NCBI RefSeq assembly: GCF_000020385.1
Contig: NC_010814.1
Coordinates: forward strand, 2,100,001-2,132,000
Source: Trichlorobacter lovleyi SZ
GTDB lineage: Bacteria > Desulfobacterota > Desulfuromonadia > Geobacterales > Pseudopelobacteraceae
Direction of reading: 5' to 3'
Length of the DNA: 32,000 nucleotides
The notes under the pieces were generated by a model that ran no database searches, was not told the DNA's origin, and saw only the letters and a program-made list of their open reading frames with translations. Both the position numbers and the translations under genes were made by a program. Shown in pieces: positions 2,403 to 30,028 of the stretch (the stretch's first letter is position 1; each line of letters opens with the position of its first letter).

Positions 2403-2960
2403 ATGAAAATCATGCCACTGCTGGTTGGAGCGATCCTGTTGCCCCTCTTGCTGGCCTGCAGCAACAGTACAACCTCTACAGCCACCACAGCCGCAAAAAC
2501 AGCTTCTGAAGCAACGGTCAAAACCATCAAACTCTATTCCGTTGCCGACAAGGGGTACATCATGAGCGTCAAGGTGATCAAGACTGAAGAGGAATGGAAA
2601 AAGCTGCTGACCCCCCAACAATACAACGTTACCCGTGAAAAGGGTACTGAGGCACCGTTTAGTGGAGCGACCTGGAATACCCATGAAAAAGGTATCTATC
2701 GCTGCATCGGCTGCGGTAACGACCTGTTCAGTTCAGAACACAAGTTTGATTCAGGTACCGGCTGGCCCAGTTTCTGGCAGGCAATTGCACCTGAAAATGT
2801 GACCGAAAAGCCGGATAACAGCCTGTTCATGCGCCGTACCGAAGTGGTCTGCAGCCGCTGTGATGCCCACCTGGGCCATGTCTTCAATGACGGCCCAAAG
2901 CCGACCGGTCTGCGCTACTGCATGAATTCTGCCGCCCTGCAGTTTGTTAAGACCCCCTGA
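2403..2960 (+). CDS. msrB: peptide-methionine (R)-S-oxide reductase MsrB, lipoprotein
   Basis: Lipobox LLLACS. Zn-binding pairs CIGC and [13 protein letters not shown], and the catalytic RYCMNS motif. Confidence 0.92.
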
Positions 2961-4483
2961 TGCCTGCCGCCCCGCTGATACTGCCTGATACACCGCAAAA
3001 CAGGCAGCTGTCTGAAAATGTTCACCCCTGTCACTGGGTTAACCCGGAACCTGCTGAGCGGTACAATCTGGTGGTGATCGGTGCCGGAACAGCCGGTCTG
3101 ATCTGTGCTGCCGGGGCAGCAGGCCTGGGGGCAAAGGTCGCCCTGGTAGAACGCAACCTGATGGGAGGTGACTGCCTCAATACAGGCTGCGTGCCCTCCA
3201 AGGCCCTGATCCGTGCAGCCAGGGCGGTATATGATGCTCGTACCGTTTCCGAGTTTGGCATGCAGGACAGCAACCTTGCCGGCTTTGATTTCAAGGTTGC
3301 CATGGAGCGGATGCAACGCCTGCGTGCCGGCATCAGCCGGCACGATTCTGCCACACGGTTCCGGGATGAACTAGGAGTTGATCTGTTTATTGGCGAAGCA
3401 TGCTTCAGCGGGCCGGACAGTGTACATGTGGATGGTAAGACGCTGCAGTTTAAAAAGGCTGCCATCTGCACCGGAGCCCGGGCAGCGGCGCCACCTGTAC
3501 CCGGGCTGGCTGAAGCCGGGTATCTGACCAATGAGACGGTCTTTTCACTGACTGAACTCCCGCTTCACCTGGCGGTGATTGGGGCCGGTCCGATCGGTTG
3601 TGAGCTGGCCCAGACCTTTTGCCGCTTTGGCAGCAAGGTGACCCTGATTGAGCTGGCCCCCGCCATTCTGGGCCGGGAAGACCGTGATGCAGCCGCAATC
3701 CTGCAGGATGCCTTGATTCGTGAAGGAATTGACCTTCAGCTTGGCGTTAAAATTTCAGCAGTTGAATCCCGAGACGACCAGAAGATTCTGCATCTTGAGA
3801 AGGATGGACACGCCATAAAAATCACTGTTGATCAGATTCTGGTTGGCGTGGGCCGCGCCCCCAACATAGAAGAACTGGCACTGCAGACAGCCGGAGTCGC
3901 GTTTGACAGAAGCGGCGTAAAGGTCAATGACCAGCTGCAGACCACTAACGCGAACATCTATGCTGCCGGCGACGTCTGCTCGGCCTATAAGTTTACCCAT
4001 ATGGCCGATGCCCAGGCCCGGATCCTGCTGGCCAATGCCCTCTTCAAGGGCAGACAGAAGGTGTCGGACCTGATCGTGCCCTGGTGTACCTACACCGATC
4101 CGGAAATAGCACATGTGGGCATGTCCGAACAGGACGCAACAGCCAAAGGGATCAACGTAACCACTCTGACTATTCCGCTTTCTGATATTGACCGTGCGGT
4201 GTTGGATGGAGAAACAGAGGGGTTTGCCAGGGTTCACCTTCACAAAGACACTGACAGGATACTGGGGGCGACCATTGTGGCCCGTCATGCCGGCGAGATG
4301 ATCAATGAATTGACCCTGGCCATCACCAACAACCTTGGTTTAGGCGCCATTGCCCGAACCATCCACCCCTACCCCACCCAGGCAGAGGTGATCAAGAAGC
4401 TGGCTGATAGCTATAACCGTACCCGCCTGACACCGTTTTTGACCCGCCTTTTGTCAGGTTGGCTGAAATGGCAGAGGGGTTGA
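2960..4483 (+). CDS. FAD-dependent pyridine nucleotide-disulfide oxidoreductase (MerA/Lpd-like class I, not a true mercuric reductase)
   Basis: VVIGAGTAGL FAD fold. Redox-active GGDCLNTGCVPSK. A second dinucleotide fold, AVIGAGPIGCE. C-terminal dimerisation motif HPYPTQAEV. There is no NmerA domain and no C-terminal Cys pair. The start overlaps the msrB stop (TGATG). Confidence 0.88.
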   Translation: MPAAPLILPDTPQNRQLSENVHPCHWVNPEPAERYNLVVIGAGTAGLICAAGAAGLGAKVALVERNLMGGDCLNTGCVPSKALIRAARAVYDARTVSEFGMQDSNLAGFDFKVAMERMQRLRAGISRHDSATRFRDELGVDLFIGEACFSGPDSVHVDGKTLQFKKAAICTGARAAAPPVPGLAEAGYLTNETVFSLTELPLHLAVIGAGPIGCELAQTFCRFGSKVTLIELAPAILGREDRDAAAILQDALIREGIDLQLGVKISAVESRDDQKILHLEKDGHAIKITVDQILVGVGRAPNIEELALQTAGVAFDRSGVKVNDQLQTTNANIYAAGDVCSAYKFTHMADAQARILLANALFKGRQKVSDLIVPWCTYTDPEIAHVGMSEQDATAKGINVTTLTIPLSDIDRAVLDGETEGFARVHLHKDTDRILGATIVARHAGEMINELTLAITNNLGLGAIARTIHPYPTQAEVIKKLADSYNRTRLTPFLTRLLSGWLKWQRG

Positions 4484-5301
4484 TGGTCCAGGTACCTGCC
4501 TTAACAGAGACTATCAGGCTGGCTGTATTTATTGGCCTGTTTGCACTGCTTGCTGCAGCTGAACGGCTCTGGCCCAGACGCCCGCTTACGGTTTCCAAAA
4601 GCAGACGCTGGCTGGCAAACATCAGTATCATTGTGGCAGATTCACTGGTGATCCGTCTGTTTTTCCCGATTCTACCGGTAGCGCTGGCAGCCACTGCACA
4701 GGTAAACAACCTGGGCCTGTTCAACCAGCTATCTTTGCCGAGCTGGTTGAACATGACGGCAGGCCTGTTGGTTCTGGACCTGGTCATCTACCTGCAACAC
4801 CGTCTGTTCCACCGTGTACCGCTGCTCTGGCGTCTGCACCGGATGCACCACACCGATCTTGATCTTGATGTATCGACCGGTAATCGCTTTCATCCGTTTG
4901 AAATTGCCCTGTCACTGCTCATCAAGATGGCGATCGTGCTGCTGTTCGGCATAGACCCGCAGACGGTACTGCTGTTTGAAATACTGCTGAATGCCACCTC
5001 GATGTTCAACCATGCCAATCTATCCATTCCCCTGCCAATGGAACGCTGGCTGCGCCTGTTTCTGATTACACCTGACATGCACCGGGTCCATCACTCGGTT
5101 ATCCCGCGAGAGACGGACAGTAATTTCGGCTTCAGCCAGCCCTGGTGGGATCGCCTGTTGGGCACCTACCATGCACAGCCCCGGGACGGACATCTCAACA
5201 TGATGATCGGACTGCGCGAATACCGCAAGCAGGACGAACTGGGAGTCTGGCGCCTGTTGCGCATCCCTTTTGAATCCATTTCTGCCCGGAGAGGCGTGTG
5301 A
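4483..5301 (+). CDS. sterol desaturase / fatty acid hydroxylase superfamily membrane protein
   Basis: Three histidine boxes: HRLFH, HRMHH and HRVHH. Several hydrophobic helices. The ATG at 4483 overlaps the upstream stop (TGATG) and follows GAGGGG. The alternative starts at 4459 (TTG) and 4468 (ATG) cannot be excluded. Confidence 0.8.
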   Translation: MVQVPALTETIRLAVFIGLFALLAAAERLWPRRPLTVSKSRRWLANISIIVADSLVIRLFFPILPVALAATAQVNNLGLFNQLSLPSWLNMTAGLLVLDLVIYLQHRLFHRVPLLWRLHRMHHTDLDLDVSTGNRFHPFEIALSLLIKMAIVLLFGIDPQTVLLFEILLNATSMFNHANLSIPLPMERWLRLFLITPDMHRVHHSVIPRETDSNFGFSQPWWDRLLGTYHAQPRDGHLNMMIGLREYRKQDELGVWRLLRIPFESISARRGV

Positions 5302-5984
5302 AGAGTAAAAAAATCATCCTGGTTCTGACCGGCCTGGCCATTGTGGCCCTGTTCTTTTACCTTGATCTGGGCCGCTATCTGACCCTTGAGAGTCTCAAGG
5401 CCAACCGTCAACTGCTGCAAACATTCTATGCTGATCATACGCTGCTGATGGTGGCAGCCTTCATGGGGGTCTACATCATCCAGACCGGCCTGGCCCTGCC
5501 CGGGGCCACCATCCTGTCGCTCTCTGCAGGCGCCATCTTCGGGCCGGTCATGGGTACGGTCTACGCTGTCAGTGCCGCCTCCATCGGTGCCACCCTCGCC
5601 TTTCTGTTCACCCGCTACCTGCTGCGGGATGCCGTGCTCAGAAGATTCGGCAACAGGCTTGAAGGAATGAACAAGGAGCTTGAAGAACGTGGCATCAACT
5701 ACCTGTTATTCCTGAGGCTAGTCCCACTCTTTCCGTTCTTTTTAATCAATCTGGCTGCGGGGCTGACCCGGCTGCCTTTGCGCACCTTTATGCTGGGCAC
5801 CTTCTTTGGCATCATTCCGGGCGGCTTTGTCTATGTCAACGCCGGGGCAAGCCTGGCCTCCATCAATGACCTGTCTGACATCGCTTCAGCACGGGTGCTG
5901 GGCTCCTTTGCCCTGCTGGGATTGTTTGCGCTGATCCCGGCTCTGTATGCACAATTCAAGAACAGGAACACGACTACCCCATGA
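5298..5984 (+). CDS. TVP38/TMEM64 (DedA-superfamily, SNARE-associated-like) membrane protein
   Basis: The GTG start overlaps the upstream stop (GTGA). It is a polytopic hydrophobic protein. The motifs LFLRLVPLFPFFLINLAAGLT and FGIIPG are typical of the family as I recall it. Confidence 0.78.
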   Translation: MKSKKIILVLTGLAIVALFFYLDLGRYLTLESLKANRQLLQTFYADHTLLMVAAFMGVYIIQTGLALPGATILSLSAGAIFGPVMGTVYAVSAASIGATLAFLFTRYLLRDAVLRRFGNRLEGMNKELEERGINYLLFLRLVPLFPFFLINLAAGLTRLPLRTFMLGTFFGIIPGGFVYVNAGASLASINDLSDIASARVLGSFALLGLFALIPALYAQFKNRNTTTP

Positions 5985-8983
5985 CCTTTGATCCACCCCG
6001 TTGGACTCGTTTTCAAGTCGATAACACGGCTGTCTGGCTCTGCCCTGATCGTCCTACCTGGTTTGTCCCCACCGCACATGGTGACCGGTTGCTGCAGCAG
6101 ATGCCGACCGACACGGCCAGTCAGGATCTTGCAACCGCAACCTTCCTGCAAAGGCTGCCCGATCCGCCTGCAAACAGCTACCAGGGCCGCCAGACGCTGC
6201 TGGGTACTACGCCGAAGCTACGGGAACTCTGGCTGCATATCACGGATCGTTGCAACCTGTCCTGCAGCCACTGCCTGTTCAGTTCCGGCCCGGACCAGGG
6301 ACGTCAGCTCTCACTGCAACAACTGAAACAGCATATTGATGATGCAGCAGCCCAGGGATGCCGCCTGTTTGCCCTGACCGGTGGAGAACCGCTGGTGCAC
6401 CCTGATTTTGCCGAGCTGATCGGCCATATCCTGGCCATACCGGACAGCCGGATTGCCGTTCTGACCAATGGTCTGTCTGTGGCTGACAAACTGGCTGCTG
6501 ACTGGCCCAGGCAGCGGATTCACCTGCAGATCAGCCTTGACGGCAGACCTGAACACCACGACCTGCTGCGGGGGGCTGGCAGTTTCAAACAACTGGAACA
6601 GCAACTGACCTGGTTGCAACAGCAGCACTGGCACTTTACCCTTAGCTGTTGCGTCACCAAGGAAAATGCCCGCGACCTGACCTGGCTGGTTGACTATGCT
6701 GCGGATCAAGGGGCTGCTGCACTGCACCTGATGTGGCACTTTATCCGTGGCCGGGGCAGCGTTGCCCAGCATCTGCAGCCGCCGGAACTGCTACAACCGG
6801 TACTGGCTGCCCTGCTGCGGGCAGAACAACGGGGCATCACCATCGACAACATCGAAAACCTGAAAGCTCAGATCTTCTCAGCACCGGGTACGATCCACGA
6901 CGGCTCCAGTGCAGGCTGGGAGGCAGGGGCCATCGGCCCGGATAATCAACTCTACCCCTCTGCAGCCACCATCGGCCTTGCTGAGCTGGCAACCCCACTG
7001 GATCAGGGACTTGTGCAGGCCTGGCAGCAAAGCCCCATACTGGCTCGGATCAGGCAAACCAGTGTAGCCGGTCTTTCCGATCCCTGGCGTTTTCTGCTGG
7101 GTGGCGGTGACCTTGATCATTGTTACCATCACAATGGCAGCTTTGTCGGCACTGATCCCTACCAACCCCTGTTTGAACAGCTGTCTCTGCTGCTGATCAA
7201 ACAGGCGGCAAACCGATTGCCTGAAGCTGCACAACCCGGACTGCGCCTCAAGATGGGAGAGCTGCTGGTCAGCTGCGACAGTCACGGCCCGGTGGCGCTC
7301 TGTCACACCAATTGTCTCCTGACACTGGAACCTTTTGCCGACAGTCGCAGCCGGGTGGGCAGCTACTACGCCGAGGCTGTTGGAGACAAGCGGCTGGAGA
7401 TCCTGAATCCGGTTCATTACGATGAAAACATGATGCAGCACATTCCCGCTGCCTTCCGTTTCAGGGGGTATGGCTGCGGCAGCCCGGTGCTGGATGCCTG
7501 CCTCAGACCGGGTGAGCAGATGGTAGATCTGGGCTGCGGCAGCGGCGTGGAATGTTTTATTGCCGCCCGGCTGGTGGGAAAAGACGGCATGGTAACCGGC
7601 ATTGATATGCTGGAGCCGATGCTTGATCTGGCCCAAAAGGGCGCAATTGAAGTACAAGAGCACCTTGGCTATAACAACCTGCAGTTTTTAAAAGGTTTTC
7701 TCGAATCACTTCCTGTTGCCGACAACTCACAGGACCTGGTGGTTTCCAACTGCGTATTGAACCTGTCTACCGATAAACGCAGCACCTTCAGCGAGATCCT
7801 GCGCATCCTGAAGCCGGGGGGCAGACTGGTGGCAGCAGATGTGGTCTGCGAGACGGAACCTGATGCCGCTATCCTGAATGACGAAAACCTGCGGGGTGAA
7901 TGTATCAGCGGCGCCCTGACCCAGAAAGACCTGCTGGGTATCCTGGATGAAAGCGGTTTCACCGGTTTCAGTGTGATCAAGCGCCTGCCCTACCGGGTGG
8001 TAAACAACCACCCGTTCTTTTCACTGACCTTTTGCGTGCGGAAGCCGGAAAACAGTTCTGAAACCGTACTGATCCTCTACCCCGGCCCTGCAGCAGGCTT
8101 GCTGGCACCCTCAGGTGCCTGGCTGCAGCCAGGGCAGGTCAACCGGATATCCAGGCAGGATGCGGATTTACTGGGCACCCAGGTCTGGCATCTGGACAGC
8201 CACGGCTTTGTCACCAATGTGACCATTGAGGCTGGTGCCAACTGCTCAAGAGCGCCGGAAGGCCGCACCAGGACGGCTGCTCAACCCCCAAGCAGACATG
8301 ATAGCGGCTGCCTGGTCTGCGGCGCCCCCCTGGTCTACCATCCGTTTGAGCAACAGATCGCCTGTCATTTCTGCGGCAAGACGCTGTCAGCCAACGCCTG
8401 CTGTGAACAGGGGCACTTTGTCTGTGACAGCTGCCATACCGACGATGCCTTAAGCCTGATTGAACACCTCTGCACAACCAGCGGCGTATCTGACCCGATC
8501 CAACTCATGAAGGAGATCCGTCGGCATCCTTCCATTCCGCTCCACGGCCCCCAATATCATGCCCTGGTGCCAGGCGTTTTACTGGCCGGCCTGCGTGCTG
8601 CCGGACATCCGGTTACCACAGAACAACTTTTTGCCGCTATCCGGCGTGGTGGTGAGGTCGGTGGCGGCAGCTGTGGTTTCATGGGGATCTGCGGTGCAGC
8701 TACCGGTACAGGTATCGCATTTAGTGTGTTGTTGGAGGCGACACCTCTCAAGGCGGCCAGACGTCAGACCGTGCAACAGGTTGTGCAACAGGTGCTGGCC
8801 GAGATAGCGGGATATGAGGCAGCCCGCTGCTGTCAGCGTGATTGCTGGATCGCCCTGCGCACCGGAATGCGGCTTGCTGCAGAGCTGTTCAGCCTGAAGC
8901 TTCCTGCTGTTGAGCCTTTTTGCTGTACCCAGATGGCCCGAAATCATGAATGTCTGGGACTGGACTGCCCACTCTGGCCATAG
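5981..8983 (+). CDS. 1000-aa fusion protein: radical SAM domain + complete ArsM-type As(III) SAM-methyltransferase + zinc-ribbon + C_GCAxxG_C_C-like Cys-rich domain
   Basis: The ATGA start overlaps the TVP38 stop. Residues ~80-300 carry CNLSCSHC (CxxxCxxC) and LTGGEPL. Residues ~458-760 carry YYAEAV, YGCGSP, VDLGCGSG, SNCVLNLSTDK, LKPGGRL and GECISGAL, which are the three As(III)-binding Cys contexts of CmArsM, with the same 50-residue spacing between the last two. Residues ~775-1000 carry CLVC...CHFC...CC...CDSC, then GGGSCGFMGICGAATG and CCQRDC. Confidence 0.85.
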   Translation: MTFDPPRWTRFQVDNTAVWLCPDRPTWFVPTAHGDRLLQQMPTDTASQDLATATFLQRLPDPPANSYQGRQTLLGTTPKLRELWLHITDRCNLSCSHCLFSSGPDQGRQLSLQQLKQHIDDAAAQGCRLFALTGGEPLVHPDFAELIGHILAIPDSRIAVLTNGLSVADKLAADWPRQRIHLQISLDGRPEHHDLLRGAGSFKQLEQQLTWLQQQHWHFTLSCCVTKENARDLTWLVDYAADQGAAALHLMWHFIRGRGSVAQHLQPPELLQPVLAALLRAEQRGITIDNIENLKAQIFSAPGTIHDGSSAGWEAGAIGPDNQLYPSAATIGLAELATPLDQGLVQAWQQSPILARIRQTSVAGLSDPWRFLLGGGDLDHCYHHNGSFVGTDPYQPLFEQLSLLLIKQAANRLPEAAQPGLRLKMGELLVSCDSHGPVALCHTNCLLTLEPFADSRSRVGSYYAEAVGDKRLEILNPVHYDENMMQHIPAAFRFRGYGCGSPVLDACLRPGEQMVDLGCGSGVECFIAARLVGKDGMVTGIDMLEPMLDLAQKGAIEVQEHLGYNNLQFLKGFLESLPVADNSQDLVVSNCVLNLSTDKRSTFSEILRILKPGGRLVAADVVCETEPDAAILNDENLRGECISGALTQKDLLGILDESGFTGFSVIKRLPYRVVNNHPFFSLTFCVRKPENSSETVLILYPGPAAGLLAPSGAWLQPGQVNRISRQDADLLGTQVWHLDSHGFVTNVTIEAGANCSRAPEGRTRTAAQPPSRHDSGCLVCGAPLVYHPFEQQIACHFCGKTLSANACCEQGHFVCDSCHTDDALSLIEHLCTTSGVSDPIQLMKEIRRHPSIPLHGPQYHALVPGVLLAGLRAAGHPVTTEQLFAAIRRGGEVGGGSCGFMGICGAATGTGIAFSVLLEATPLKAARRQTVQQVVQQVLAEIAGYEAARCCQRDCWIALRTGMRLAAELFSLKLPAVEPFCCTQMARNHECLGLDCPLWP

Positions 8984-9004
8984 GCACGAAACAGCTATAG
9001 CTGC

Positions 9005-9032
9005 TTGACACAGATCCGGTCTGAGGTACTCT
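9005..9032 (+). promoter_or_regulatory. sigma-70-like promoter candidate for the signalling operon
   Basis: TTGACA (9005-9010), a 16-nt spacer, then TACTCT (9027-9032). It sits 31 nt upstream of the ATG at 9063, which follows GGGAG. A perfect 12-bp palindrome, CAGCTATAGCTG (8992-9003), abuts the -35 box. Confidence 0.4.
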
Positions 9033-9062
9033 TACAGTTGTAACAAACAGGGAGCAGACCTC

Positions 9063-10016
9063 ATGATCTCTGCTGCAACCTACAGTGCTGTGACGGATCT
9101 GCCAACCCGACGATTTTTCCTCGGGTTTGCTCTGTTGTCTGTTATTCTGCTGCTGACCGGCTGTAACCCTCAATCTGCTGAAAAACCGTTGCAGTACAGC
9201 AAAACACCATCGGCAGCATTACCACCGGTCTACCGCTTTGCAGTCCATCCCCTGCATAATCCGGCAAAACTTGCTGAGGCCTATCAACCGCTGATCGAGT
9301 TTTTAAATCTTCATATCCCGGAAGCACACTTTGAACTGGAGGCCTCACGGGATTATCAGGCTTTTGAAGAAAAATACCGCACCCGACGCCCCGAATTCCT
9401 GTTGCCCAATCCCTGGCAATCGATTGAAGCCATGAAGAACGGCTACCAGGTGATTGCCATGGCCGGTGACGCAGAAGACTTCAAAGGACTCTTTATTGTC
9501 CGTAAAAACAGTCCGATCAAAAAGCCGGCCGATCTCAAGGGGAAGACCGTCAGTTACCCTTCCCCGACTGCCCTGGCAGCCTGCATCATGCCGCAGTACT
9601 TCCTGCATCAACAAGGTATTAACATTAACCGTGATATTACCAACATCTACGTGGGATCCCAGGAATCATCCATCATGAGTACCTACCTGGACCAATCCGC
9701 AGCAGGTGTCACCTGGCCGGTCCCCTGGCGGCTGTTTCAGCAGGACCACCCCCACGAAGCTGCCCAGCTTAAAGTACTTTGGGAAACGCCCTGTCTGCTG
9801 AACAACTCGGTGATGATACGTGATGATGTACCGTCAGTGATCAGCCGGAAGGTCAGACAACTGCTGCTTGATCTGCCACAAACAGCAGAAGGACGAGCTG
9901 TCTTGAGCAGTATGTCCACTACTCGTTTTCATGTCGCTGACAATGGAAGCTATCAAAAGGTACGTGACTATGTGACAGCCTTTGAAAAAGAGGTACGTCC
10001 GGTGGATACAAAGTGA
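9063..10016 (+). CDS. PhnD-like phosphate/phosphite/phosphonate-type periplasmic substrate-binding protein
   Basis: An N-terminal hydrophobic segment with LLLTGC (lipobox-like). It looks like a type-2 periplasmic binding protein of about 300 aa (YRFAVHP, GKTVSYPSPTALA). Its stop overlaps the downstream kinase start (GTGA). Confidence 0.75.
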   Translation: MISAATYSAVTDLPTRRFFLGFALLSVILLLTGCNPQSAEKPLQYSKTPSAALPPVYRFAVHPLHNPAKLAEAYQPLIEFLNLHIPEAHFELEASRDYQAFEEKYRTRRPEFLLPNPWQSIEAMKNGYQVIAMAGDAEDFKGLFIVRKNSPIKKPADLKGKTVSYPSPTALAACIMPQYFLHQQGININRDITNIYVGSQESSIMSTYLDQSAAGVTWPVPWRLFQQDHPHEAAQLKVLWETPCLLNNSVMIRDDVPSVISRKVRQLLLDLPQTAEGRAVLSSMSTTRFHVADNGSYQKVRDYVTAFEKEVRPVDTK

Positions 10017-12316
10017 TCTTCAACAGACTGACCTGGTTTCTGGCGGGTACGCTGCAACGGCGCATGGTTGCCGGCATGACACTGGTTATGGCAATCACCA
10101 TGTCCCTGTTTGTGCTGGACATGACCCGTCGCCAGGAAGCCGTTGCCCTGCAGCAGCATGTCCTGCAGGCACGTGCCTTAACCCAGAGTGTCTCAGCATC
10201 CTCGGCCGTCTGGGTTGCCTCACGGGATTACAGTGGGCTGCAGGAAATCATCGCAGCCCTTGAACACTATCCAAATCTGGCCCACGCCATTGTTCTTGAT
10301 TCCCGTGGTCAGGTTCTGGCGCACAGTGATCGCAAGCGGATCGGTCTCTATCTGACCGGTTTGCCCGATCAGCCATTATTGCAGGTTCTACAAAAGACTA
10401 TCCGCATGGTGGATGTTGCGAGTCCGATCCTGCTTGGCGGGAAACCGATCGGTTGGGTACGGATAGGCCTTAACGGTAAAGGGCTTGAGGCTGACATTGC
10501 CGAGATTCACCGCAACGGACTCATTTTTGCGCTGGCAGCAGTCATGCTGGGAGCCCTGCTCGCCGTGCTTACCGGTCGTTATCTGACCCGTCGGCTTGAT
10601 CTGATTCAAGAGGTGGTTGACCAGGTTGAGACAGGCAACGCAGATGTGCGTGTACAGCTTGCTGGAAACGATGAGGCTAAACGTCTCGGTCTTGCCGTGA
10701 ATGCGATGCTCGACGCACTATCCCAACGTGCTGAATCTCTGCAGCAGAGTGAACAGCGCTTCCGATCGATGATAGAAAACGCCGGCGACGCTATTTACAT
10801 CCACGATCACAACGGAAAGATACTGAGTGCCAACCAGGTCTGCTGTTGTCAAACCGGCTATACTCTTGATGAACTGTTGATGTCTCCTGTGTCATTGGTA
10901 GACAGACAGATTGACGTGCAGACTTTAGAAGAAATCTGTCGCCTGGCTACGGCAGCCCCTGCCAGATTCCCCATGACACTGAAAACTGTTCACACTCGCA
11001 AGGATGGCAGCAGTTTTCCGGTCGAGGTGCGCCTCAGTCTGCTCCCGGCAGGTGATGATGTGCATTTCGTTGCCATGGTGCGCGATATCACCGAGCGCAA
11101 GCGTGCTGAGGACGAGTTGCTGCGTGCCAAGGCTGCCGCCGAAACGGCCAATACCACCAAGAGCGAATTTCTGGCCAATATGAGCCACGAAATCCGTACC
11201 CCGATGAACGGGGTGATCGGTAATGCCCAGCTGCTCCGTTTTACCGATCTGACCGAAGAACAGTCCCGCTACCTCGAATATATCGAAGCTGATGCCAAGC
11301 ATCTGGTTTCGGTTATCAATGACCTGCTTGATATCTCCAAGATTGAGGCAGGCAAGATGGAGCTTGAGCAGACCTCATTCAGTCTGCGCGGCTGCATCAA
11401 TGACCTGTTGAAACCAATGACTCCGAGGATTGCAACCAAGGGGCTGATCTTCAATACCGAGATTGCCAACACGGTCCCGGATGCCTTGACCGGAGATCAG
11501 CTCAGACTGAAACAGATCCTTCGTAATCTGGTAGGCAATGCCATCAAGTTTACCGATCAGGGATCTATCACATTGCGGGTCGAACTGCTTGAACACTCAG
11601 AAAACAAGGCATTATTTTATTTCAGTGTGATTGACACCGGCATCGGCATCCCTCAAGAAGCACTTGAAAGGTTGTTTACCCCCTTTACCCAGGCTGACAG
11701 TTCAGTAACACGAAAGTTCGGAGGAACCGGCCTGGGGCTGTCAATCTGCAACCGGCTGGCCGGGTTGATGGGAGGCAACATTTCCGTTGAAAGCAGCGAA
11801 GGTGCAGGAAGTTGTTTCCATGTCACCCTGCCGTTTCAGACCAGGCAAGCCGGGACATTACCGCAGGAGGAGCCGCTTCAAGCCAACACCTCACCGGGAT
11901 GGCAGGGGACACCGCTCACCATCCTGCTGGTGGACGACAGTCAGACCAGCCAGATCATGGCAGCGAACCTGCTGCGCCATTTCGACCACAGGGTAGAGAC
12001 CGCTGAAAATGGAGCAGATGCTTTGGAACAGTGGCGCAAAGACTCATTTGACATTATTCTGATGGATATCCAGATGCCGGTGATGGACGGTCTTGAGGCC
12101 ATGCGCATCATCCGCGAAGAAGAGCGCACAACCAACCGCCATACCGCCATCATTGCCCTGACCGCCCATGCCCTGGTTGAACAGCGCAATCATCTACTCT
12201 CCTCCGGCTTTGATGGTTATGTCTCAAAGCCGTTGGATATTGCTGTGTTGCATACTGAAATGAAGCGGGTACTGAACCCGAAAACAGATACTCCAGAATA
12301 CTGTCGATTGGATTAA
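10013..12316 (+). CDS. hybrid sensor histidine kinase (2 TM periplasmic sensor-HAMP-PAS-HisKA-HATPase-REC)
   Basis: H-box [15 protein letters not shown]. ATPase motifs LVGNAIKFT, DTGIGI and GGTGLGLSI. Receiver motifs ILLVDD, ILMDIQMPVMDG and YVSKP. Confidence 0.9.
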   Translation: MIFNRLTWFLAGTLQRRMVAGMTLVMAITMSLFVLDMTRRQEAVALQQHVLQARALTQSVSASSAVWVASRDYSGLQEIIAALEHYPNLAHAIVLDSRGQVLAHSDRKRIGLYLTGLPDQPLLQVLQKTIRMVDVASPILLGGKPIGWVRIGLNGKGLEADIAEIHRNGLIFALAAVMLGALLAVLTGRYLTRRLDLIQEVVDQVETGNADVRVQLAGNDEAKRLGLAVNAMLDALSQRAESLQQSEQRFRSMIENAGDAIYIHDHNGKILSANQVCCCQTGYTLDELLMSPVSLVDRQIDVQTLEEICRLATAAPARFPMTLKTVHTRKDGSSFPVEVRLSLLPAGDDVHFVAMVRDITERKRAEDELLRAKAAAETANTTKSEFLANMSHEIRTPMNGVIGNAQLLRFTDLTEEQSRYLEYIEADAKHLVSVINDLLDISKIEAGKMELEQTSFSLRGCINDLLKPMTPRIATKGLIFNTEIANTVPDALTGDQLRLKQILRNLVGNAIKFTDQGSITLRVELLEHSENKALFYFSVIDTGIGIPQEALERLFTPFTQADSSVTRKFGGTGLGLSICNRLAGLMGGNISVESSEGAGSCFHVTLPFQTRQAGTLPQEEPLQANTSPGWQGTPLTILLVDDSQTSQIMAANLLRHFDHRVETAENGADALEQWRKDSFDIILMDIQMPVMDGLEAMRIIREEERTTNRHTAIIALTAHALVEQRNHLLSSGFDGYVSKPLDIAVLHTEMKRVLNPKTDTPEYCRLD

Positions 12317-12319
12317 AAC

Positions 12320-13627
12320 ATGAGTCTGCAACAGACAGATCTGCCCCTGATACTGCTGGTTGATGATGTCCCCTCTAACCTGCACCTGCTGGTGGCGGCG
12401 TTAAAGGATGATTACCGGATCAAAACTGCTGTCAGTGGCCAGGCCGCTCTGGAGCTGGCAGCCCGTGAAGACCGTCCTGAGCTGATACTGCTGGATATAA
12501 TGATGCCGGAAATGAACGGGATTGAGGTGCTGCGCAGGTTGCGCGACACCCCTGACACTGCCGGAATTCCGGTTATCTTTGTTACAGCCGACAACTCTGA
12601 GCAAAGCCAATTAAGTGGCTTGGAGCTGGGCGCGGATGATTACCTCACCAAACCGGTGGTTACTGCTGTGCTGAAGGTGCGTGTCCGTAACCTTCTGCAG
12701 CGTAAGCGTATAGAACGGGAACTTCGCCTTGCCAGTCACGTCTTCAACTACAGTGGTGAAGCGATCATGATCACCGACCGCTCAAACCGGATCATTGAGG
12801 TTAACGCTGCCTTTACCCGGCAGACCGGGTACCTGTTGGAGGAGGTACAGGGGCAGGACCCTAAGATACTTTCTTCCGGCCGCACCAGTCCGGAAGAGTA
12901 CCGCTCAATGTGGCAGAGTCTTCATGATGAGGGGTTTTGGCAGGGAGAGCTGTGGGACCGCAGGAAAGACGGGGGCGTGTATCCTAAACTACTGACTATC
13001 TCAGTTGTCCGAAACTCCAAGGGGCAGATTGATTTCCATATCGGCAGTTTTACCGATATCTCCCGCCAGAAGACCGTAGAGGCGGAAATCCGTCATGTTG
13101 CCAATCATGACTACCTGACCGGTCTGCCCAACAGGATGTACGTTCAAGTGGTGCTGGAACAGACCATGACCCTGGCACGGCGTGAGCATACCGAAATTGC
13201 CGTGATGTTTATTGATCTTGATCGTTTCAAAAACATCAACGACACCTTTGGACATGCTGTGGGGGATGGGCTTTTGATACAGGTTGCGGCACGGCTCAAA
13301 CAAAGCGTACGGGAAAGCGATCTGGTGGCCAGGCTTGGCGGAGATGAATTCGTGGTGGTGATGACCAGTCACCTGACGGTTAATGGCGAAATTACCGTGG
13401 CGCAAAAAATCCTGGAAAACCTGTCACTCCCGTATCAGGTCGGTGAACTGACCTTGCACAGCCCCCCCAGTATCGGCATCAGCCGTTACCCTTTTGATGC
13501 ACTGTCCGTCGAGGAGCTTATGAAGCATGCTGATATGGCCATGTATCAGGTCAAACAGTCCGGCAGAGGGCAGTACCGTTTTTTTGAGCCGGCACACGCG
13601 GCCGGCACCCCGGAACAGCCCGCATGA
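12320..13627 (+). CDS. response regulator REC-PAS-GGDEF diguanylate cyclase
   Basis: Receiver motifs ILLVDD, LLDIMMPEMNG and DYLTKP. PAS region FNYSGEAIMITD. Active-site motif RLGGDEFVV, with an RxxD I-site (RESD) five residues upstream. Confidence 0.9.
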   Translation: MSLQQTDLPLILLVDDVPSNLHLLVAALKDDYRIKTAVSGQAALELAAREDRPELILLDIMMPEMNGIEVLRRLRDTPDTAGIPVIFVTADNSEQSQLSGLELGADDYLTKPVVTAVLKVRVRNLLQRKRIERELRLASHVFNYSGEAIMITDRSNRIIEVNAAFTRQTGYLLEEVQGQDPKILSSGRTSPEEYRSMWQSLHDEGFWQGELWDRRKDGGVYPKLLTISVVRNSKGQIDFHIGSFTDISRQKTVEAEIRHVANHDYLTGLPNRMYVQVVLEQTMTLARREHTEIAVMFIDLDRFKNINDTFGHAVGDGLLIQVAARLKQSVRESDLVARLGGDEFVVVMTSHLTVNGEITVAQKILENLSLPYQVGELTLHSPPSIGISRYPFDALSVEELMKHADMAMYQVKQSGRGQYRFFEPAHAAGTPEQPA

Positions 13628-16600
13628 CCAGTACCTCTTTTACCAAAAGTCCGCCTCGCCACTGGGCCATCTTCAGCCTTACCGTACTGATGCTGGGCCT
13701 GTTGCTGTTTTTGTATCTTTTCCGGGAGCACGAACGGGCAGGGATGCGTGAGCAAGAGCAACTTCTGCGAAAAGCTGAGATCATCAGTAAAAATACGGCT
13801 TGGAACCTGGAGTCGCTGAACAAGCTTTTGCTCAGTCTGCAAAAAGATCCTGCCCTGCTGGCAAATGACCCCGGTTATAATCAACGTTTTGAAGACCTGG
13901 CAAATGCCATGCCCGGTATTCGCACCATAGTGCGGCTGGATGCCCTGGGCATCACCCGCCTCTCCAGCAGGGCTGAACTGCTGGGTAAAGGCTTCAGTGA
14001 CCGTGATTACTTCCTGATTCCGCAGCAACAGGCCGGTAAGGAGTTGCTATATGTCTCACCCCCTTTCAGGACAGCCCTGAACACCTATGTGATCAACCTG
14101 AGCAGGTCACTACGCAATCCTGACGGCAGCTTTGCCGGCGTCATTGCAGCCTCCCTTGATCCTGATTACTTCAGCAGCCTGCTTTTATCCGTCTTGTACG
14201 CACCGGACATGCGTTCTGCACTGGCGCACTGGGATGGCCTGCTCTTTCTCATGGAACCCGGCCACAAAGAATTTATCGGAAAAAACCTGGCCGTCCCGGG
14301 CAGTTTCTTCAGCAGGCACCGTGCGAGCGGCAAGCAACAAACGGTGCACACCGGCACTGTCTACGCCACCGGCAGAAACCAGATGATGGCACAGATCACC
14401 ATCCAGCCCGAATCGCTGAAGATGAACAAGCCGTTGGTGGTGGCGGTTTCCCGTGATCTTGACGTTGTGTATGCCGACTGGCGGAGCGAAGCAATTCTAC
14501 TGGGATCGCTGTTTCTGCTGTCTGCAACCGTAGCCGGTTTTACCCTGCATTTTTTCCACAAACGGCATGAGGAGTTTACCCGGCAGAAAGCGGCGTCGGA
14601 TGAAAGTATCCGTAAACTGAATGAGGAGCTGGATCGGTTCTTCAGCATGGCCCTGGATATGCTCTGCATAGCAGATCTGGATGGCCACTTCAAGCGGTTG
14701 AACCGTTCCTGGGAAGAAACACTCGGCTATGCCCTTGACGAGCTGACCGGGAAACAGTTTCTTGAGTTTATCCATCCCGATGACATTCCGGCTACCCTGG
14801 CAGCCCTGTCCGATCTGGATGCAAACAAACAGATTCTCAATTTTATCAATCGCTACCGTTGCAAGGATGGCTCCTACCGCTGGATCGAATGGCGTTCAAC
14901 CCCCTGTGCCAACCTGATTTATGCTGCTGCACGGGACATTACTGAACGTAAGAACGCCGAAGCCGCACTTGAGGAGAGTGAACGGTTCATGCGGGTGTTG
15001 ACCGACATCATTCCCGGCATGGTGGGCTACTGGGACAGAGATTTACATAACCGCTTTGCCAATATTGCCTACCTGGAGTGGTTTGGAAAAACATCTGAGC
15101 AGATGCGCGGCATCCATATTCGAGACCTGATGGGTGACGAGCTGTTCGCTAAAAATGAACCATACATGCGGGCAGCGCTGAACGGAGAACGGCAACGCTT
15201 TGAACGCACCCTCACCAAGGCTGACGGCAGCATTGGTTATACCTGGGCCCACTATATACCGGATATCGCCAATGGACAGGTCAGGGGCTTCTTTGTCCTG
15301 GTATCTGATATTACGGAACTGAAACTGACCCAGCTGCAACTGGAGCAACGTACAAAAGAGGCCGAAGCTGCCAATCGGGCAAAATCAGAATTCCTCGCCA
15401 ATATGAGCCACGAGATCCGCACCCCGATGAACGCCATTCTTGGGTTGACCAGACTGGTGCTTGAGACCGAGCTTGATCCGCGCCAGAGGGATTTTCTGCT
15501 CAAGGTCTACAATGCATCGCAAGCTCTGATGGAAATCCTGAATGATATTCTTGACTATTCAAAAATCGAAGCCGGCCGGGTTGAAATAGAACAGTTACCG
15601 ATCTCTGTGGAAGAGGTTGTCAGGAATACCATGGGGTTGTTCAGGGCTAAAATTGAAGAAAAAGGGCTTGCCACCATCATGGAACTCGCCTCTTCCCTCC
15701 CTGCTGTGCTTCAGGGCGACCCGATGCGCCTGTCACAAGTGCTCAACAACCTGGTGGGAAATGCCGTCAAGTTTACCGAAAGCGGAGAGATCCGCATCAT
15801 GGTTGAACAGATACAAGAAGACTGTAGAACGGTTACGCTCTGTTTTTCCGTGCAGGATACCGGCATCGGCCTCGACAAAGATGAAACAGCCCGGTTGTTC
15901 CAGGCCTTTACCCAGGCTGACAGCACCATCAGCCGCAAATACGGTGGCACCGGATTGGGGTTGACCATCTGCCAAAGACTGGTTGGACTGATGGGAGGTT
16001 CCATCAGCGTCTCAAGCCTAAAAGGAGTTGGCAGCACCTTCAGTTTTGTCATTCAGATGGGTAAAGTTCCCCCGGGTACCCAGGCAAAGAAACTGCATGC
16101 CTTTGCTGACGGTGCAATGGGTACACCAGATTCTTTGGCAGTTTTATCAGCGCACCAGAAGAAGCTTGAACTGAACAGGCTGCGTGTCCTGCTGGTGGAA
16201 GACAACCGGATCAATCAGGAGGTGGCTGCCGAGATACTACAGCAATACGGCGCACAGGTTACCCTTGCCGACCATGGTGCTGCTGCGCTTGAGCTGCTTA
16301 CCGGCCCCGGCTTTGACGTTGTTCTGATGGACCTGCATATGCCGGTAATGGACGGATTTGAAGCCACCCGCAAAATCAGGGAGCTGTACGATAGTGCAAC
16401 CCTGCCGGTGATTGCCATGACCGCTGCAGTCTTGCAGGATGACCGTGAGCGCTGTACTGCAGCAGGCATGGTGGATTTTGTAGCCAAACCGATCAACCCG
16501 CTGGAACTGGTGACTGTGCTGAAACGTTTTCAAAAAACAAGTTCACCATCATCAGTACCTCATGAGGCTGCGATCTCCCCCTTTGAGCCGAGTGATCCCG

Positions 16601-17211
16601 ATTCGGCGCTACCAAGTTTAGATGTCGCAACCGCCCTGCGTCGAATGGGCGGTCACAGCGAATTATTGAACAGCCTGTTAAAATCCTTTGCAAAGGAGCA
16701 CGGCCTGTCGGCAGATGAGCTTAAAGCCTTGCTGTCTGAAGGTAAAACAGATGACGCGCTGCACCTGGCCCATAACATAAAAGGCGTTTCCGGAACCGTT
16801 GGGGCAGTACGGCTGATGCAGGCGGCTGCAGCGTTGGAACAGCAACTGCGTTCAGATCCACGTCAGGCAGACCTGGACCTGTTTACCCGCGAGCTGGAGC
16901 TGGGCTTGTCTGCCATCAATCGTTATCTGCTCAGCCAGGAGCGGACCGTAACCGCTCCTGGCGGCGACCATACGCCACTTGATTATGAAAAACTGCATCC
17001 CTTGTTGCAGGAACTGACCACCTATCTGCGTGAACAGGAGCTTGCTCCTGAACAGCTGCTGCAGCAGATCGTAAAGCTATCTGCCGGCACAGACAGCCCG
17101 TTACTCGCAAATCTGCTGCGTCAGCTGGACCGTTTTGACCATGCCGGCGCACTTGAGACAGTACAACAGCTCATTGCCGGGCTGACAGAGCAGCCCCACC
17201 AGCCACGATGA
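13624..17211 (+). CDS. hybrid sensor histidine kinase (Cache-like periplasmic domain-TM-2xPAS-HisKA-HATPase-REC-Hpt)
   Basis: The ATGA start overlaps the upstream stop. [30 protein letters not shown] and GGTGLGLTI. Receiver motifs VLLVEDN and [12 protein letters not shown]. Hpt motif [12 protein letters not shown]. Confidence 0.9.
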
Positions 17212-17888
17212 AGATTTCCGTTATCATTCCGGTACTGCATGAGCAGGATCAGATCAACGGGATCATCAGACATCTGCGTTCCATTGATCCTGACGTTGAA
17301 ATTATCGTAGTTGACGGCGATCCAGGCGGTTCAACCATTGCGGTTATTGCTGACGGCACAGTGTTCCGGCTTGGCTCATCCATTAAAGGACGCGGCAATC
17401 AGCTGGCTGCAGGAACCGCCACTGCCAGCGGCGATATCCTGTTGATGCTGCATGCAGATACGTTTTTACCGTCTCATGCCTTCAGTTCCATCCTGACTGC
17501 GGTCAGCAGAGGAACTGACTGGGGCGCCTTCCGCCTGGGTATTGATGCCACCTCCCCCCTGTATCGTGTGATTGAAAGGTTTGTTGATCTGCGCTGTAAA
17601 CTGTTTGCGCTTCCTTATGGTGACCAGGCCATCTTTGTCCGTAGAGTTGCCTTGCAGGAGATCGGTGGCATTCCCGCCATTCCGCTGATGGAGGATGTGG
17701 CGTTGGCCCGCAAACTCCGGCAGACCGGCTTCAGGTTTGCTATGCTGTCCGAACGGGTGAGCACCTCTCCCCGCCGTTGGCAAAAGGATGGAGTTATTCG
17801 TCGCACTCTACATAACTGGCTATTGTTATTGCGTTATCTATGCGGCACAGAACCGGAAGAACTGACGAAATGGTACCGCCCGAACTAA
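17208..17888 (+). CDS. family-2 glycosyltransferase of the TIGR04283 type (rSAM/selenodomain-associated transferase 2; arsenosugar-associated)
   Basis: The ATGA start overlaps the kinase stop. [43 protein letters not shown] and TSPRRW match my recollection of this family's conserved blocks. Confidence 0.8.
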   Translation: MKISVIIPVLHEQDQINGIIRHLRSIDPDVEIIVVDGDPGGSTIAVIADGTVFRLGSSIKGRGNQLAAGTATASGDILLMLHADTFLPSHAFSSILTAVSRGTDWGAFRLGIDATSPLYRVIERFVDLRCKLFALPYGDQAIFVRRVALQEIGGIPAIPLMEDVALARKLRQTGFRFAMLSERVSTSPRRWQKDGVIRRTLHNWLLLLRYLCGTEPEELTKWYRPN

Positions 17889-17984
17889 CACGGTCCGGTC
17901 CCAGGTTACTACTGCAGGCAGTTACAGGCCAACCGTCTATTCAACCAGATTCATATGAGAGAAATATACATAGGGAGGTACACC

Positions 17985-18356
17985 ATGAATTATTTTTTGA
18001 GCATATTCTGCGTATGCCAGATCCTGGTCGCAACATCTGCCCTGGCCGCCGATTTTACCGGGACCTGGTGCCGCCCTCAGCACAGTGGAATGCCGGATGA
18101 CATTATCTGGGTTGCTGCAGGCACAGAACTCTACTCAGTCAAACTTACAGAAGGCTGGCAGGGCAAGCATTATTCTCAGGGAGTCGCCTCTGCAGTTGGT
18201 AATAAACTGATTGCCACCTTAAAGGGTGAGGCCTCCGGCAAGACAATCCACGCTGTCATGGCACTCTCGGACAATCAGCTTTCGTACCGCTCCTACAAAG
18301 ACAACCAGACCAGTCACTACTGGCAGGGCAATTACCAGCGATGCTCCAAACCGTAG
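17985..18356 (+). CDS. small exported hypothetical protein
   Basis: The ATG at 17985 lies 7 nt after GGGAGG. Signal peptide MNYFLSIFCVCQILVATSALA. I recognise no family. The 3' end overlaps the next gene by 16 nt. Confidence 0.6.
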   Translation: MNYFLSIFCVCQILVATSALAADFTGTWCRPQHSGMPDDIIWVAAGTELYSVKLTEGWQGKHYSQGVASAVGNKLIATLKGEASGKTIHAVMALSDNQLSYRSYKDNQTSHYWQGNYQRCSKP

Positions 18357-18958
18357 CCCTGTTCGTCAAACCGCCTATCCCCGGCCGGGTTAAGACCCGC
18401 CTGGCCAGGGCTATCGGTGCAGATGAGGCCTGCACTATCTACCGCACTCTGGCTGATCACACGATTCAGCAGGTACAAGCCAGCGGTACGCCGCTGGCCT
18501 TGTTCTTTGACGGTTCTGATCCGGCAGCTTTGCCGCCTGCCTGGGTGCAGGCTTCACAGGTCTGTTTGCCTCAGCAGGGTGATGATCTGGGAGAACGGAT
18601 GGCGGCTGTCTTCAGATATCTGTTTGCTGCCGGTGTCAAACAAGCGGTTTTGATCGGCAGTGACATACCCGGTATTGATGCCGCCTATCTTCAGCAGGCT
18701 TTTGAGTTGCTGGCCGCTAACGCCATGGTGCTCGGTCCTGCTCTTGATGGCGGCTACTGCCTGATCGGCTTCAACAAGATCCATTTTACTGAATCCGTCT
18801 TTCAGAATATCCCCTGGAGCACTGACCAGGTCTTTGAACTGACGCTACATAGTGTGCAGCAGGCAGCGTTGACCGTGGGCCTGCTGCCGCCGCTGCAGGA
18901 CATTGATACGATTGCCGACCTGAAGCATCTTAATCCGGCAAGATTCCAGGTTGACTGA
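18341..18958 (+). CDS. DUF2064 / TIGR04282-type transferase (rSAM/selenodomain-associated transferase 1; arsenosugar-associated)
   Basis: Hallmark N-terminus LFVKPPIPGRVKTRLA, then GDDLGERM, VLIGSDIPG, GPALDGGYCLIG and IPWSTDQV. Confidence 0.82.
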   Translation: MLQTVALFVKPPIPGRVKTRLARAIGADEACTIYRTLADHTIQQVQASGTPLALFFDGSDPAALPPAWVQASQVCLPQQGDDLGERMAAVFRYLFAAGVKQAVLIGSDIPGIDAAYLQQAFELLAANAMVLGPALDGGYCLIGFNKIHFTESVFQNIPWSTDQVFELTLHSVQQAALTVGLLPPLQDIDTIADLKHLNPARFQVD

Positions 18959-18961
18959 GTG

Positions 18962-18990
18962 TTGACAAAACAGACCAAAGCCTGAATGAT
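18962..18990 (+). promoter_or_regulatory. sigma-70-like promoter candidate for the M3 peptidase gene
   Basis: TTGACA (18962-18967), a 17-nt spacer, then AATGAT (18985-18990). The -10 box covers the track ATG at 18986, which favours the SD-preceded ATG at 19028 as the real start. Confidence 0.4.
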
Positions 18991-21642: not shown

Positions 21643-21690
21643 ACAAGCCCCTTCCCGCAACCGGAGGGGGCTTGTTGTTACTCTGTTTTT
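21643..21690. terminator. stem-loop terminator between convergent genes
   Basis: A 13-bp stem (21643-21655 pairs with 21663-21675, core ACAAGCCCC/GGGGCTTGT) and a 7-nt loop. A T-rich run ending in TTTTT at 21690 follows on the plus strand. Confidence 0.7.
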
Positions 21691-29825: not shown

Positions 29826-30028
29826 AATAACTTACGTCCCATCACCTACCCCGCCACAACCCCATTGTCCAGTTGTAACAATACCAAGCTTAATGTACTC
29901 TTTAGACAATTTTAGAAATTCCCAGCCATAGTGATCAATCTGTGGAGGCTAGATATAGAGTATGTCTAGGTCTTCCTGCAAAATCGACAGTTTAAGCAGA
30001 GTTTCCGGCAACGGCGGGAGCGCAATCC

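Follow-up and report, generated by a model that had tools for sequence, protein, structure and literature searches.

A radical SAM-ArsM-DUF5714 fusion gene and arsenosugar-type transferase genes in Trichlorobacter lovleyi SZ

A 32,000-nt stretch of the Trichlorobacter lovleyi SZ genome (contig NC_010814.1), called the window here, was analyzed and its proteins were assigned to families by Pfam and NCBIfam profile searches. The window contains a single open reading frame (ORF) for a 1000 amino acid (aa) protein in which a radical S-adenosylmethionine (SAM) domain, an ArsM-like methyltransferase domain and a cysteine-rich zinc-ribbon/DUF5714 module are joined. This protein is referred to as the fusion. 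Genes for two transferases of the families TIGR04283 and TIGR04282 lie downstream on the same strand (Table 1). The window was judged, with moderate confidence, to hold a variant of the ArsS-type (arsenosugar-type) organo-arsenical cluster in which this one protein replaces separate ArsS and ArsM proteins.

The plus strand series is tightly packed, most junctions between 970 and 8983 overlapping or being no more than 19 nt wide. An ATGA overlap at 5981 joins the stop of the VTT gene to the start of the fusion gene and another at 17208 joins the stop of the second kinase gene to the start of the TIGR04283 gene. The reading given above is favored by the overlaps in the run of genes that begins with the CCG gene and ends with the fusion gene, and by that between the kinase and TIGR04283 genes. 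A 79-nt gap separates the fusion gene (end 8983) from a signaling operon (start 9063). In the four genes of the operon (9063-17211) a PhnD-like binding protein is followed by a hybrid kinase, a REC-PAS-GGDEF protein and a second hybrid kinase, the last with Hpt. A preliminary description of the window had stated that only a signaling operon stands between the fusion and the first transferase, that this transferase gene shows a signature of translational coupling to the operon, and that fatty acid hydroxylase and VTT/TVP38 membrane proteins are encoded upstream of the fusion; all three statements agreed with the present data. No terminator-like site was found in either intergenic gap (8984-9062 and 17889-17984). 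The TIGR04283 protein was 100% identical to a protein named from Trichlorobacter (Geobacter) lovleyi, and the same gene arrangement was present in several T. lovleyi-type contigs.

Table 1. Features of the window. Positions are counted from the first nucleotide of the window.
Feature	Position	Strand	Basis
Dicluster/CCG-domain protein, C-terminal part	1-988	+	Open frame from base 2; PF02754 CCG; NF045663 profile positions 418-658; cut by 5' window edge
DUF3047 protein with signal peptide	970-1716	+	PF11249, 233 bits; N-terminal hydrophobic segment
MsrA with N-terminal signal-like segment	1716-2384	+	TIGR00401, 198.8 bits; hydrophobic N-terminus
MsrB with lipoprotein-type signal	2403-2960	+	TIGR00357, 193.5 bits; signal read from N-terminus
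MerA-like flavin adenine dinucleotide (FAD)-containing pyridine nucleotide-disulfide oxidoreductase	2960-4483	+	NF004991, 852 bits (cutoff 620)
Membrane fatty-acid-hydroxylase-family protein	4459-5301	+	PF04116, 101 bits; three hydrophobic segments
VTT/TVP38 (DedA-type) membrane protein	5298-5984	+	PF09335, 99 bits; stop overlaps fusion start
Three-domain fusion, 1000 aa: radical SAM, ArsM-like methyltransferase, zinc-ribbon/DUF5714	5981-8983	+	Single ORF; Pfam/NCBIfam
Radical SAM domain of fusion (aa 82-364)	6224-7072	+	PF04055, 73.7 bits
ArsM-like methyltransferase domain of fusion (aa 472-677)	7394-8011	+	PRK11873, 196 bits; triad C499, C591, C641
Cys-rich zinc-ribbon and DUF5714 domain of fusion (aa 776-999)	8306-8977	+	PF18978, 192.6 bits; ARCCQRDC motif
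PhnD-like periplasmic binding protein, signaling operon gene 1	9063-10016	+	PF12974, 170.6 bits
Hybrid sensor histidine kinase, sCache_3_2-HAMP-PAS-HisKA-HATPase-REC	10013-12316	+	Domain profiles
REC-PAS-GGDEF response regulator (diguanylate cyclase output)	12320-13627	+	Domain profiles
Hybrid histidine kinase: dCache, PAS domains, REC, Hpt	13624-17211	+	Domain profiles; stop overlaps TIGR04283 start
TIGR04283-family glycosyltransferase family 2 (GT2)-type transferase	17208-17888	+	231.0 bits (cutoff 182)
Predicted secreted protein, 123 aa	17985-18356	+	Good ribosome binding site and signal peptide from sequence; called as gene in L081-L086
TIGR04282-family (DUF2064) transferase	18341-18958	+	201.2 bits (cutoff 134)

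Pfam and NCBIfam placed the radical SAM domain at aa 87-236, the ArsM-like methyltransferase at aa 472-677 and DUF5714 at aa 827-999 of the fusion. The radical SAM domain carries the CxxxCxxC motif at aa 91-98 (6251-6274), which is generic to the superfamily, and C91, C95 and C98 were invariant in the family alignment. Its best NCBIfam match was MftC-type (SPASM-type maturase) at 94.5 bits. An AlphaFold2 model of the domain had a predicted local distance difference test (pLDDT) score of 88, and its nearest folds were SkfB, CteB, PqqE and anSME. The predicted fold is SPASM/twitch-like. The SPASM/twitch maturases therefore provided the best matches by both sequence and fold; unlike them, the fusion has no peptide-substrate context and no conserved auxiliary-cluster cysteine (Cys) at aa 225-431, where no invariant Cys was present in family alignments of 15 and 55 homologues.

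ArsM methylates As(III) at a Cys triad. The top five PDB matches of the ArsM-like domain were all arsenite methyltransferases (E about 1e-32), and the As(III) ligands C72, C174 and C224 of CmArsM aligned to C499, C591 and C641 of the fusion, which were invariant in both sets of homologues. Of the 272 PRK11873 profile positions, 40-240 were matched, so that the ArsM N-terminus is missing or replaced. For the fourth ArsM Cys (C44 in CmArsM), no Cys was found at the canonical spacing before YGCG; the invariant C432 and C445 lie farther upstream.

The DUF5714 match covered profile positions 1-173 of 173, at a score to be compared with a gathering score of 26.2. The zinc-ribbon/DUF5714 module has 15 invariant Cys, and the ARCCQRDC motif is among the invariant positions. 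An AlphaFold2 model of DUF5714 (pLDDT 84.6) consisted of a beta-hairpin and a helical bundle, and in a Foldseek search of the PDB this model had no match at E <= 0.001 and TM-scores of about 0.15 at best. The nearest named family was NF045648 MbdU ("metal-binding double selenoprotein") at 138.5 bits. The C-terminal 230 aa of the fusion matched PF18978 and the first half of the MbdU model, but the fusion was under the MbdU cutoff (138 vs 600), has Cys in place of selenocysteine and is joined to two SAM enzymes. Homology of DUF5714 to the Cys-rich DUF3641 domain of ArsS was ruled out (hhalign probability 0.7%). Other DUF5714 architectures (the P0249, P0292, P0305 and P0328 set) included many stand-alone proteins of about 240 aa and proteins with Zn_ribbon_HMPTM, radical SAM and DUF5714 without a methyltransferase. 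Further DUF5714 fusions were to a solute-binding domain with a Ser/Thr kinase and to alanine-racemase-like/D-serine-dehydratase domains. Source databases name the three-domain fusion just "DUF5714 domain-containing protein" or "methyltransferase domain-containing protein."

The two transferases were assigned by nearly complete profile matches, at positions 1-221 of 221 for TIGR04283 and 2-189 of 189 for TIGR04282. The latter protein also matched PF09837 (126 bits) and is homologous to PDB 3CGX, a "putative nucleotide-diphospho-sugar transferase" (E 5e-33). Both scores exceeded the trusted cutoffs (Table 1), so the doubt that the family assignments of the preliminary description might rest on sub-cutoff matches was removed. 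The two families also occur as one protein. TIGR04282 and TIGR04283 are fused in a 484 aa protein at L156:9212-10666, both above cutoffs, and a single ORF holds both in many metagenome loci.

The TIGR04283 family was defined by its neighborhood to ArsS. No stand-alone ArsS or ArsM was found in the 32-kb window by tblastn; a genuine ArsS (from locus L088, TIGR04167 420 bits) and an ArsS-ArsM protein used as queries matched only inside the fusion gene. This result and the domain profiles bore out the earlier statement that a radical SAM-ArsM fusion lies upstream on the same strand and that stand-alone copies of both genes are lacking in the window. More than 120 full-length homologues of the fusion were found at >=50% identity, and 231 fusion loci were found in GTDB species genomes. 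Neighborhoods were counted in 80 of these 231 loci, with flanks up to 10 kb, by tblastn and jackhmmer. ArsS was present in none of the 80, every ArsS-like match falling in the fusion's own radical SAM domain. TIGR04283 is here without a neighboring ArsS, and the fusion would occupy the ArsS role.

The transferase genes were linked to the fusion well beyond the window. TIGR04283 and/or TIGR04282 lay within 10 kb of the fusion in 20 of the 80 loci, while about 0.5% per locus would be expected by chance (a rare single-copy gene in 20 kb of a 4-Mb genome). The fusion hosts were Geobacteraceae, Desulfuromonadales, Desulfobacterales, Desulfovibrionales, Chlorobium, Pirellulaceae, Victivallales and Anaerolineales. 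TIGR04283 starts at the fusion stop codon and is followed by TIGR04282 in L004, a T. lovleyi metagenome-assembled genome (MAG), and in L005, L010, L022 and L034. The pair adjoins the fusion in other orders and orientations in Desulfuromusa-type MAGs (L027, L031), Desulfobacterales (L062) and Victivallales (L059, L076). It lies about 6 kb from the fusion in the Anaerolineales locus L064, with VTT, FAD oxidoreductase and fatty acid hydroxylase genes between. Partial loci had TIGR04282 with or without DUF3047 (L024, L043, L045, L048, L050). The co-occurrence of ArsS-free transferase pairs with the fusion, raised in the preliminary description as a question, was thus answered positively, the genes being neighbors in several unrelated lineages and often overlapping at stop and start codons.

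The recurrent neighbors of the fusion were the same genes that precede it in the window, namely DUF3047 (13-16 loci), VTT (about 15), the CCG protein (10), FAD oxidoreductase, fatty acid hydroxylase and MsrA/B. A homologue of the CCG protein precedes DUF3047 in L002, L010, L016, L022 and L034. VTT is directly upstream of the fusion in many loci, including that of S. acetylenivorans (L170:7071-7784). It adjoins the fusion upstream even where no transferases are nearby (L170, L052, L053, L061, L073), and VTT and the fusion may be a minimal conserved pair. Fructose-bisphosphate aldolase, glyceraldehyde-3-phosphate dehydrogenase, a LysR regulator, RlmL, PilZ and an ATP-binding cassette ATPase were also recurrent; these were rejected as functional partners because they reflect lineage synteny. 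Two fusion paralogues were present on separate contigs of the Pelobacter sp. isolate GS8 MAG (L006 and L012).

The reciprocal comparison started from TIGR04283. Eighty metagenome loci from a scan with the TIGR04283 alignment and L088 made up a set of 81. ArsS was present in 21 of the 81 loci, and neither the fusion nor DUF5714 was found in any of these 21. The accessory families in the ArsS loci were TIGR04282 (20), VTT (12), FAD oxidoreductase (12), ArsM (7), MsrA/B (4), DUF3047 (3) and fatty acid hydroxylase (2). Examples of ArsS loci with shared accessory genes were L088, L109 and L112, the fatty acid hydroxylase being in L109 and L112. Eighteen loci had 4 kb or more of sequence on either side; of these, eight had ArsS, one had the fusion and nine had neither. 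On a 396-kb contig (L118) the three-domain fusion lies beside TIGR04282 and TIGR04283 without ArsS. As ArsS and the fusion were never in the same locus and were accompanied by the same accessory families, ArsS appears to be replaced by the fusion in these loci. We infer a non-orthologous functional replacement of ArsS plus ArsM.

Canonical ArsS-ArsM fusions were also found next to TIGR04282/TIGR04283, at L111:7266-9302 (+; 678 aa, 362 bits) and L113:7841-9904 (-; 687 aa, 349 bits), both above the TIGR04167 cutoff of 300. They resemble the fusion in having the radical SAM half N-terminal and ArsM C-terminal; they differ in that their radical SAM half is genuine ArsS and DUF5714 is absent. Such natural "Rosetta stone" proteins support the view that radical SAM and ArsM domains act on one substrate. 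In L111 a selD gene (10921-11889) lies shortly beyond TIGR04283. In a neighbor-joining tree of TIGR04283 (no support values) the fusion-associated sequences were scattered among the ArsS-associated ones. This scatter suggests that the radical SAM partner has been exchanged repeatedly.

A 342 aa protein of T. ammonificans (L087:10669-11697) consists of TIGR04282 fused to an MsrB (SelR) domain. Taken with the MsrA/B genes of the four ArsS-type loci, it suggests that the pathway includes a step of the sulfoxide-reductase type, which might act on an As=O group.

The ArsS plus ArsM pathway (TIGR04167; Synechocystis-type and Nitrospirota-type clusters, e.g., L088) was the closest known system. It shares TIGR04283, TIGR04282, VTT/TVP38, the MerA-like FAD oxidoreductase, DUF3047, fatty acid hydroxylase and MsrA/B with the fusion loci. 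Radical SAM and ArsM activities are combined in both, and the radical SAM enzyme of each has a Cys-rich extra module. The fusion differs in having no DUF3641, in having ArsM in cis and DUF5714 added, and in a radical SAM half that is not an ArsS orthologue. It is found in strict anaerobes (Geobacteraceae, Desulfuromonadales, Chlorobium and others).

ArsS adenosylates trivalent dimethylarsenic (DMAs(III)) to 5'-deoxy-5'-dimethylarsinoyl-adenosine (PMC13598754). By homology to structurally characterized ArsM, the ArsM-like domain of the fusion would bind As(III) via C499, C591 and C641 and methylate it with SAM. The N-terminal radical SAM domain, with C91, C95 and C98 as ligands, would then create an additional As-C bond on this methylated trivalent arsenical. 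Most probably the radical reaction would be 5'-deoxyadenosylation, as ArsS performs on DMAs(III); the proposal follows from equivalence of gene context and not from orthology. The zinc-ribbon/DUF5714 module might, speculatively, bind or hand over the arsenical or hold an auxiliary cluster. It would be analogous, not homologous, to the Cys/selenocysteine-rich tail of ArsS and to the RCCLKC tail of ArsL. TIGR04283 and TIGR04282, VTT, the fatty-acid-hydroxylase-like protein, the MerA-like oxidoreductase, DUF3047 and MsrA/B could process the product further, and the end product is likely to be a glycosylated and/or membrane-associated arsenical. The preliminary description had proposed a variant pathway to a glycosylated or lipid-linked organo-arsenical; cross-genome linkage and the shared accessory families argue for the variant pathway, while the nature of the product stays an inference.

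Several points weigh against an ArsS-type cluster with a fused core. The radical SAM domain scored 50.8 bits against ArsS TIGR04167, where the cutoff is 300, and only profile positions 6-145 were matched; hhalign aligned only 141 core columns of the domain to ArsS. It is, by these comparisons, not an ArsS orthologue, and its reaction is unreadable from homology. The ArsM domain was under the curated cutoffs (PRK11873 196.3 vs 263, AsSugarArsM 110.3 vs 400). The role of TIGR04282/TIGR04283 in arsenosugar synthesis was assigned by association, and no paper that tests it was found. About 75% of the fusion loci had no transferase within 10 kb, the fusion gene of D. acetoxidans stands alone, and ars resistance genes were absent among the recurrent neighbors. 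Lastly, the absence of canonical ArsS claimed in the preliminary description held only for the 32-kb window and, in the 80 fusion loci, for the flanking sequence of up to 10 kb. When the L088 ArsS was compared with a protein database, the best 120 matches all had at least 60% identity and those named by organism were all Nitrospirota, which is uninformative on Trichlorobacter.

Some of these points would suit an enzyme that by itself methylates and detoxifies arsenic (or antimony) under anaerobic conditions, with transferases and membrane proteins loosely associated and concerned with envelope or oxidative-stress maintenance. This explanation was considered unlikely. In such an enzyme the radical SAM and DUF5714 parts would assist methylation; they might, for example, reduce pentavalent intermediates or transfer methyl groups by a radical route. 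The intact ArsM Cys triad is consistent with this, as are the majority of fusion loci without nearby transferases and those without any accessory gene. MsrA/B and the FAD disulfide oxidoreductase are classic oxidative-repair proteins, and some DUF5714 relatives combine radical SAM and DUF5714 without a methyltransferase and have the zinc ribbon of a radical SAM methylase family. Detoxification alone does not readily account for co-localization with a rare gene pair in 25% of loci, in several phyla, in varied orders and with stop/start overlap, at an expectation of about 0.5%. Nor does it readily explain why ArsS and the fusion were never found in one locus and yet share accessory families, and the TIGR04282-MsrB protein of T. 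ammonificans connects Msr with the pathway.

ArsL forms an As-C bond and binds arsenite via a C-terminal RCCLKC motif (bioRxiv 10.1101/2024.02.01.577332). An ArsL-like radical SAM domain in the fusion would transfer a 3-amino-3-carboxypropyl group or other SAM fragment to arsenic, and the ArsM domain would then methylate an arsinothricin-like or non-sugar product. This was regarded as improbable. ArsL and ArsM are a known radical SAM and methyltransferase pair acting on As(III); the fusion would share with this pair an As-C bond-forming radical SAM enzyme, with a putative CC...C arsenite-binding motif, that is partnered with ArsM. The invariant ARCCQRDC motif of DUF5714 resembles RCCLKC; it is, however, internal to a 170-aa helical domain and not in a tail. 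The arsinothricin ArsM model scored 153 bits, far under its cutoff of 500, and no ArsL model was among the 25 best radical SAM matches. ArsL and ArsM are separate proteins, have no glycosyltransferase-type or membrane partners and showed no specific similarity to the fusion, whose accessory gene set is that of ArsS loci.

A selenium, tellurium or sulfur substrate, with misleading "arsenosugar" family names, was thought least probable of all: the transferase families were first defined as rSAM/selenodomain-associated (Joint Genome Institute names keep this), the closest named DUF5714 relative is the double selenoprotein MbdU, SelD is beside TIGR04283 in L111, MsrB (SelR) is linked to the cluster and the binding protein shows weak similarity to a putative selenate-binding family, but the As(III)-binding Cys of crystallized ArsM are invariant in the fusion, ArsS was shown to adenosylate DMAs(III) (PMC13598754), and the selenium links follow from the fact that ArsS and its relatives are themselves often selenoproteins.

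The ArsS-type cluster with a fused core was retained as the preferred reading. A further proposal is made tentatively and with rather less confidence: the fusion may represent, after ArsS and ArsL, a third lineage of radical SAM enzymes that form As-C bonds, independent in its evolution and of SPASM/twitch-type ancestry. Arsenite might pass from the new-fold, Cys-rich DUF5714 via the in-cis ArsM to a site where it is adenosylated, or alkylated in some other way, by a radical mechanism. Geobacter-type iron reducers, Desulfuromonadales, green sulfur bacteria and some Planctomycetota, Lentisphaerota and Chloroflexota would then have an unrecognized ability to make arsenosugar- or arsenolipid-type compounds under anoxia.

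Studies of arsenosugar and arsenolipid synthesis have dealt with oxygenic phototrophs and algae, and anaerobes that transform arsenic beyond reduction are poorly known. Geobacter relatives dominate arsenic-mobilizing aquifers and paddy soils. According to one paper (PMC11462812), functional arsM has been characterized in just one anaerobic isolate. In the literature searched, no radical SAM-ArsM fusion was found, a paper on ArsM horizontal transfer was silent on radical SAM fusions, and no paper mentioning DUF5714 was found; the fused-core variant of the ArsS-type cluster is undescribed there. The locus suggests an unstudied organo-arsenical route in anaerobic iron-reducing bacteria. If this is correct, Geobacter relatives may make complex organo-arsenicals, which matters for the speciation, mobility and toxicity of arsenic in groundwater and rice. 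DUF5714 would gain its first functional context, a single-polypeptide system would be available for studies of As-C bond formation, and there would be a second, independent handle on the roles of TIGR04282/TIGR04283, the VTT protein and Msr.

The signaling operon was compared with those of close relatives. In L002 and L022, where the fusion is 72-74% and the signaling proteins are 73-78% identical to those of the window, the order is fusion, TIGR04283, TIGR04282, binding protein, kinase. Since the operon is downstream in these loci, its position in the window is, judging from gene order, a local, lineage-specific rearrangement of two neighboring units. In T. lovleyi this rearrangement with the neighboring cyclic di-GMP operon would have parted the transferase pair from the fusion gene. 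A similar operon also precedes TIGR04283 in T. ammonificans. Because of the ATGA overlap it is plausible that TIGR04283 is co-transcribed with the kinase. The suggestion of dedicated sensory control was not supported by these comparisons: no DNA-binding regulator is encoded in the operon, which ends in a GGDEF diguanylate cyclase with a cyclic di-GMP output and is distal to the transferases in close relatives. The weak match of the binding protein to the putative selenate-binding family was 79.5 bits, with a cutoff of 250.

The ORF for the 123 aa protein lies between the two transferase genes and overlaps the TIGR04282 start by 16 nt. It had no Pfam or NCBIfam family match and no tblastn match in the 80 fusion loci, and it was seen in T. 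lovleyi-type contigs only. Beyond TIGR04282 are genes for an M3 oligoendopeptidase, a beta-carbonic anhydrase and ClpB, which are unrelated to the locus. A sigma-70-like promoter match is present at 18962-18990 (TTGACA, 17 nt, AATGAT), between TIGR04282 and the M3 oligoendopeptidase gene, and a terminator-like hairpin at 21648-21669 follows the carbonic anhydrase gene. These two elements suggest that the arsenic-related unit ends at 18958. Searches for Rfam families and tRNA genes in the window were negative. The 3' window edge cuts a long ORF for a PAS-containing sensor (about 29995-32000).

A periplasmic single-domain rhodanese of 138-144 aa with the active-site loop CPRGKSGAK was encoded at L010:6608-7021, L022:5713-6126 and L034:7173-7589 and in eight other Geobacteraceae-type fusion loci. 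Its gene is just upstream of the CCG gene in several loci (e.g., L010, L016, L022, L034) and directly upstream of the fusion in L003. In T. lovleyi a rhodanese gene would fall just past the 5' window edge.

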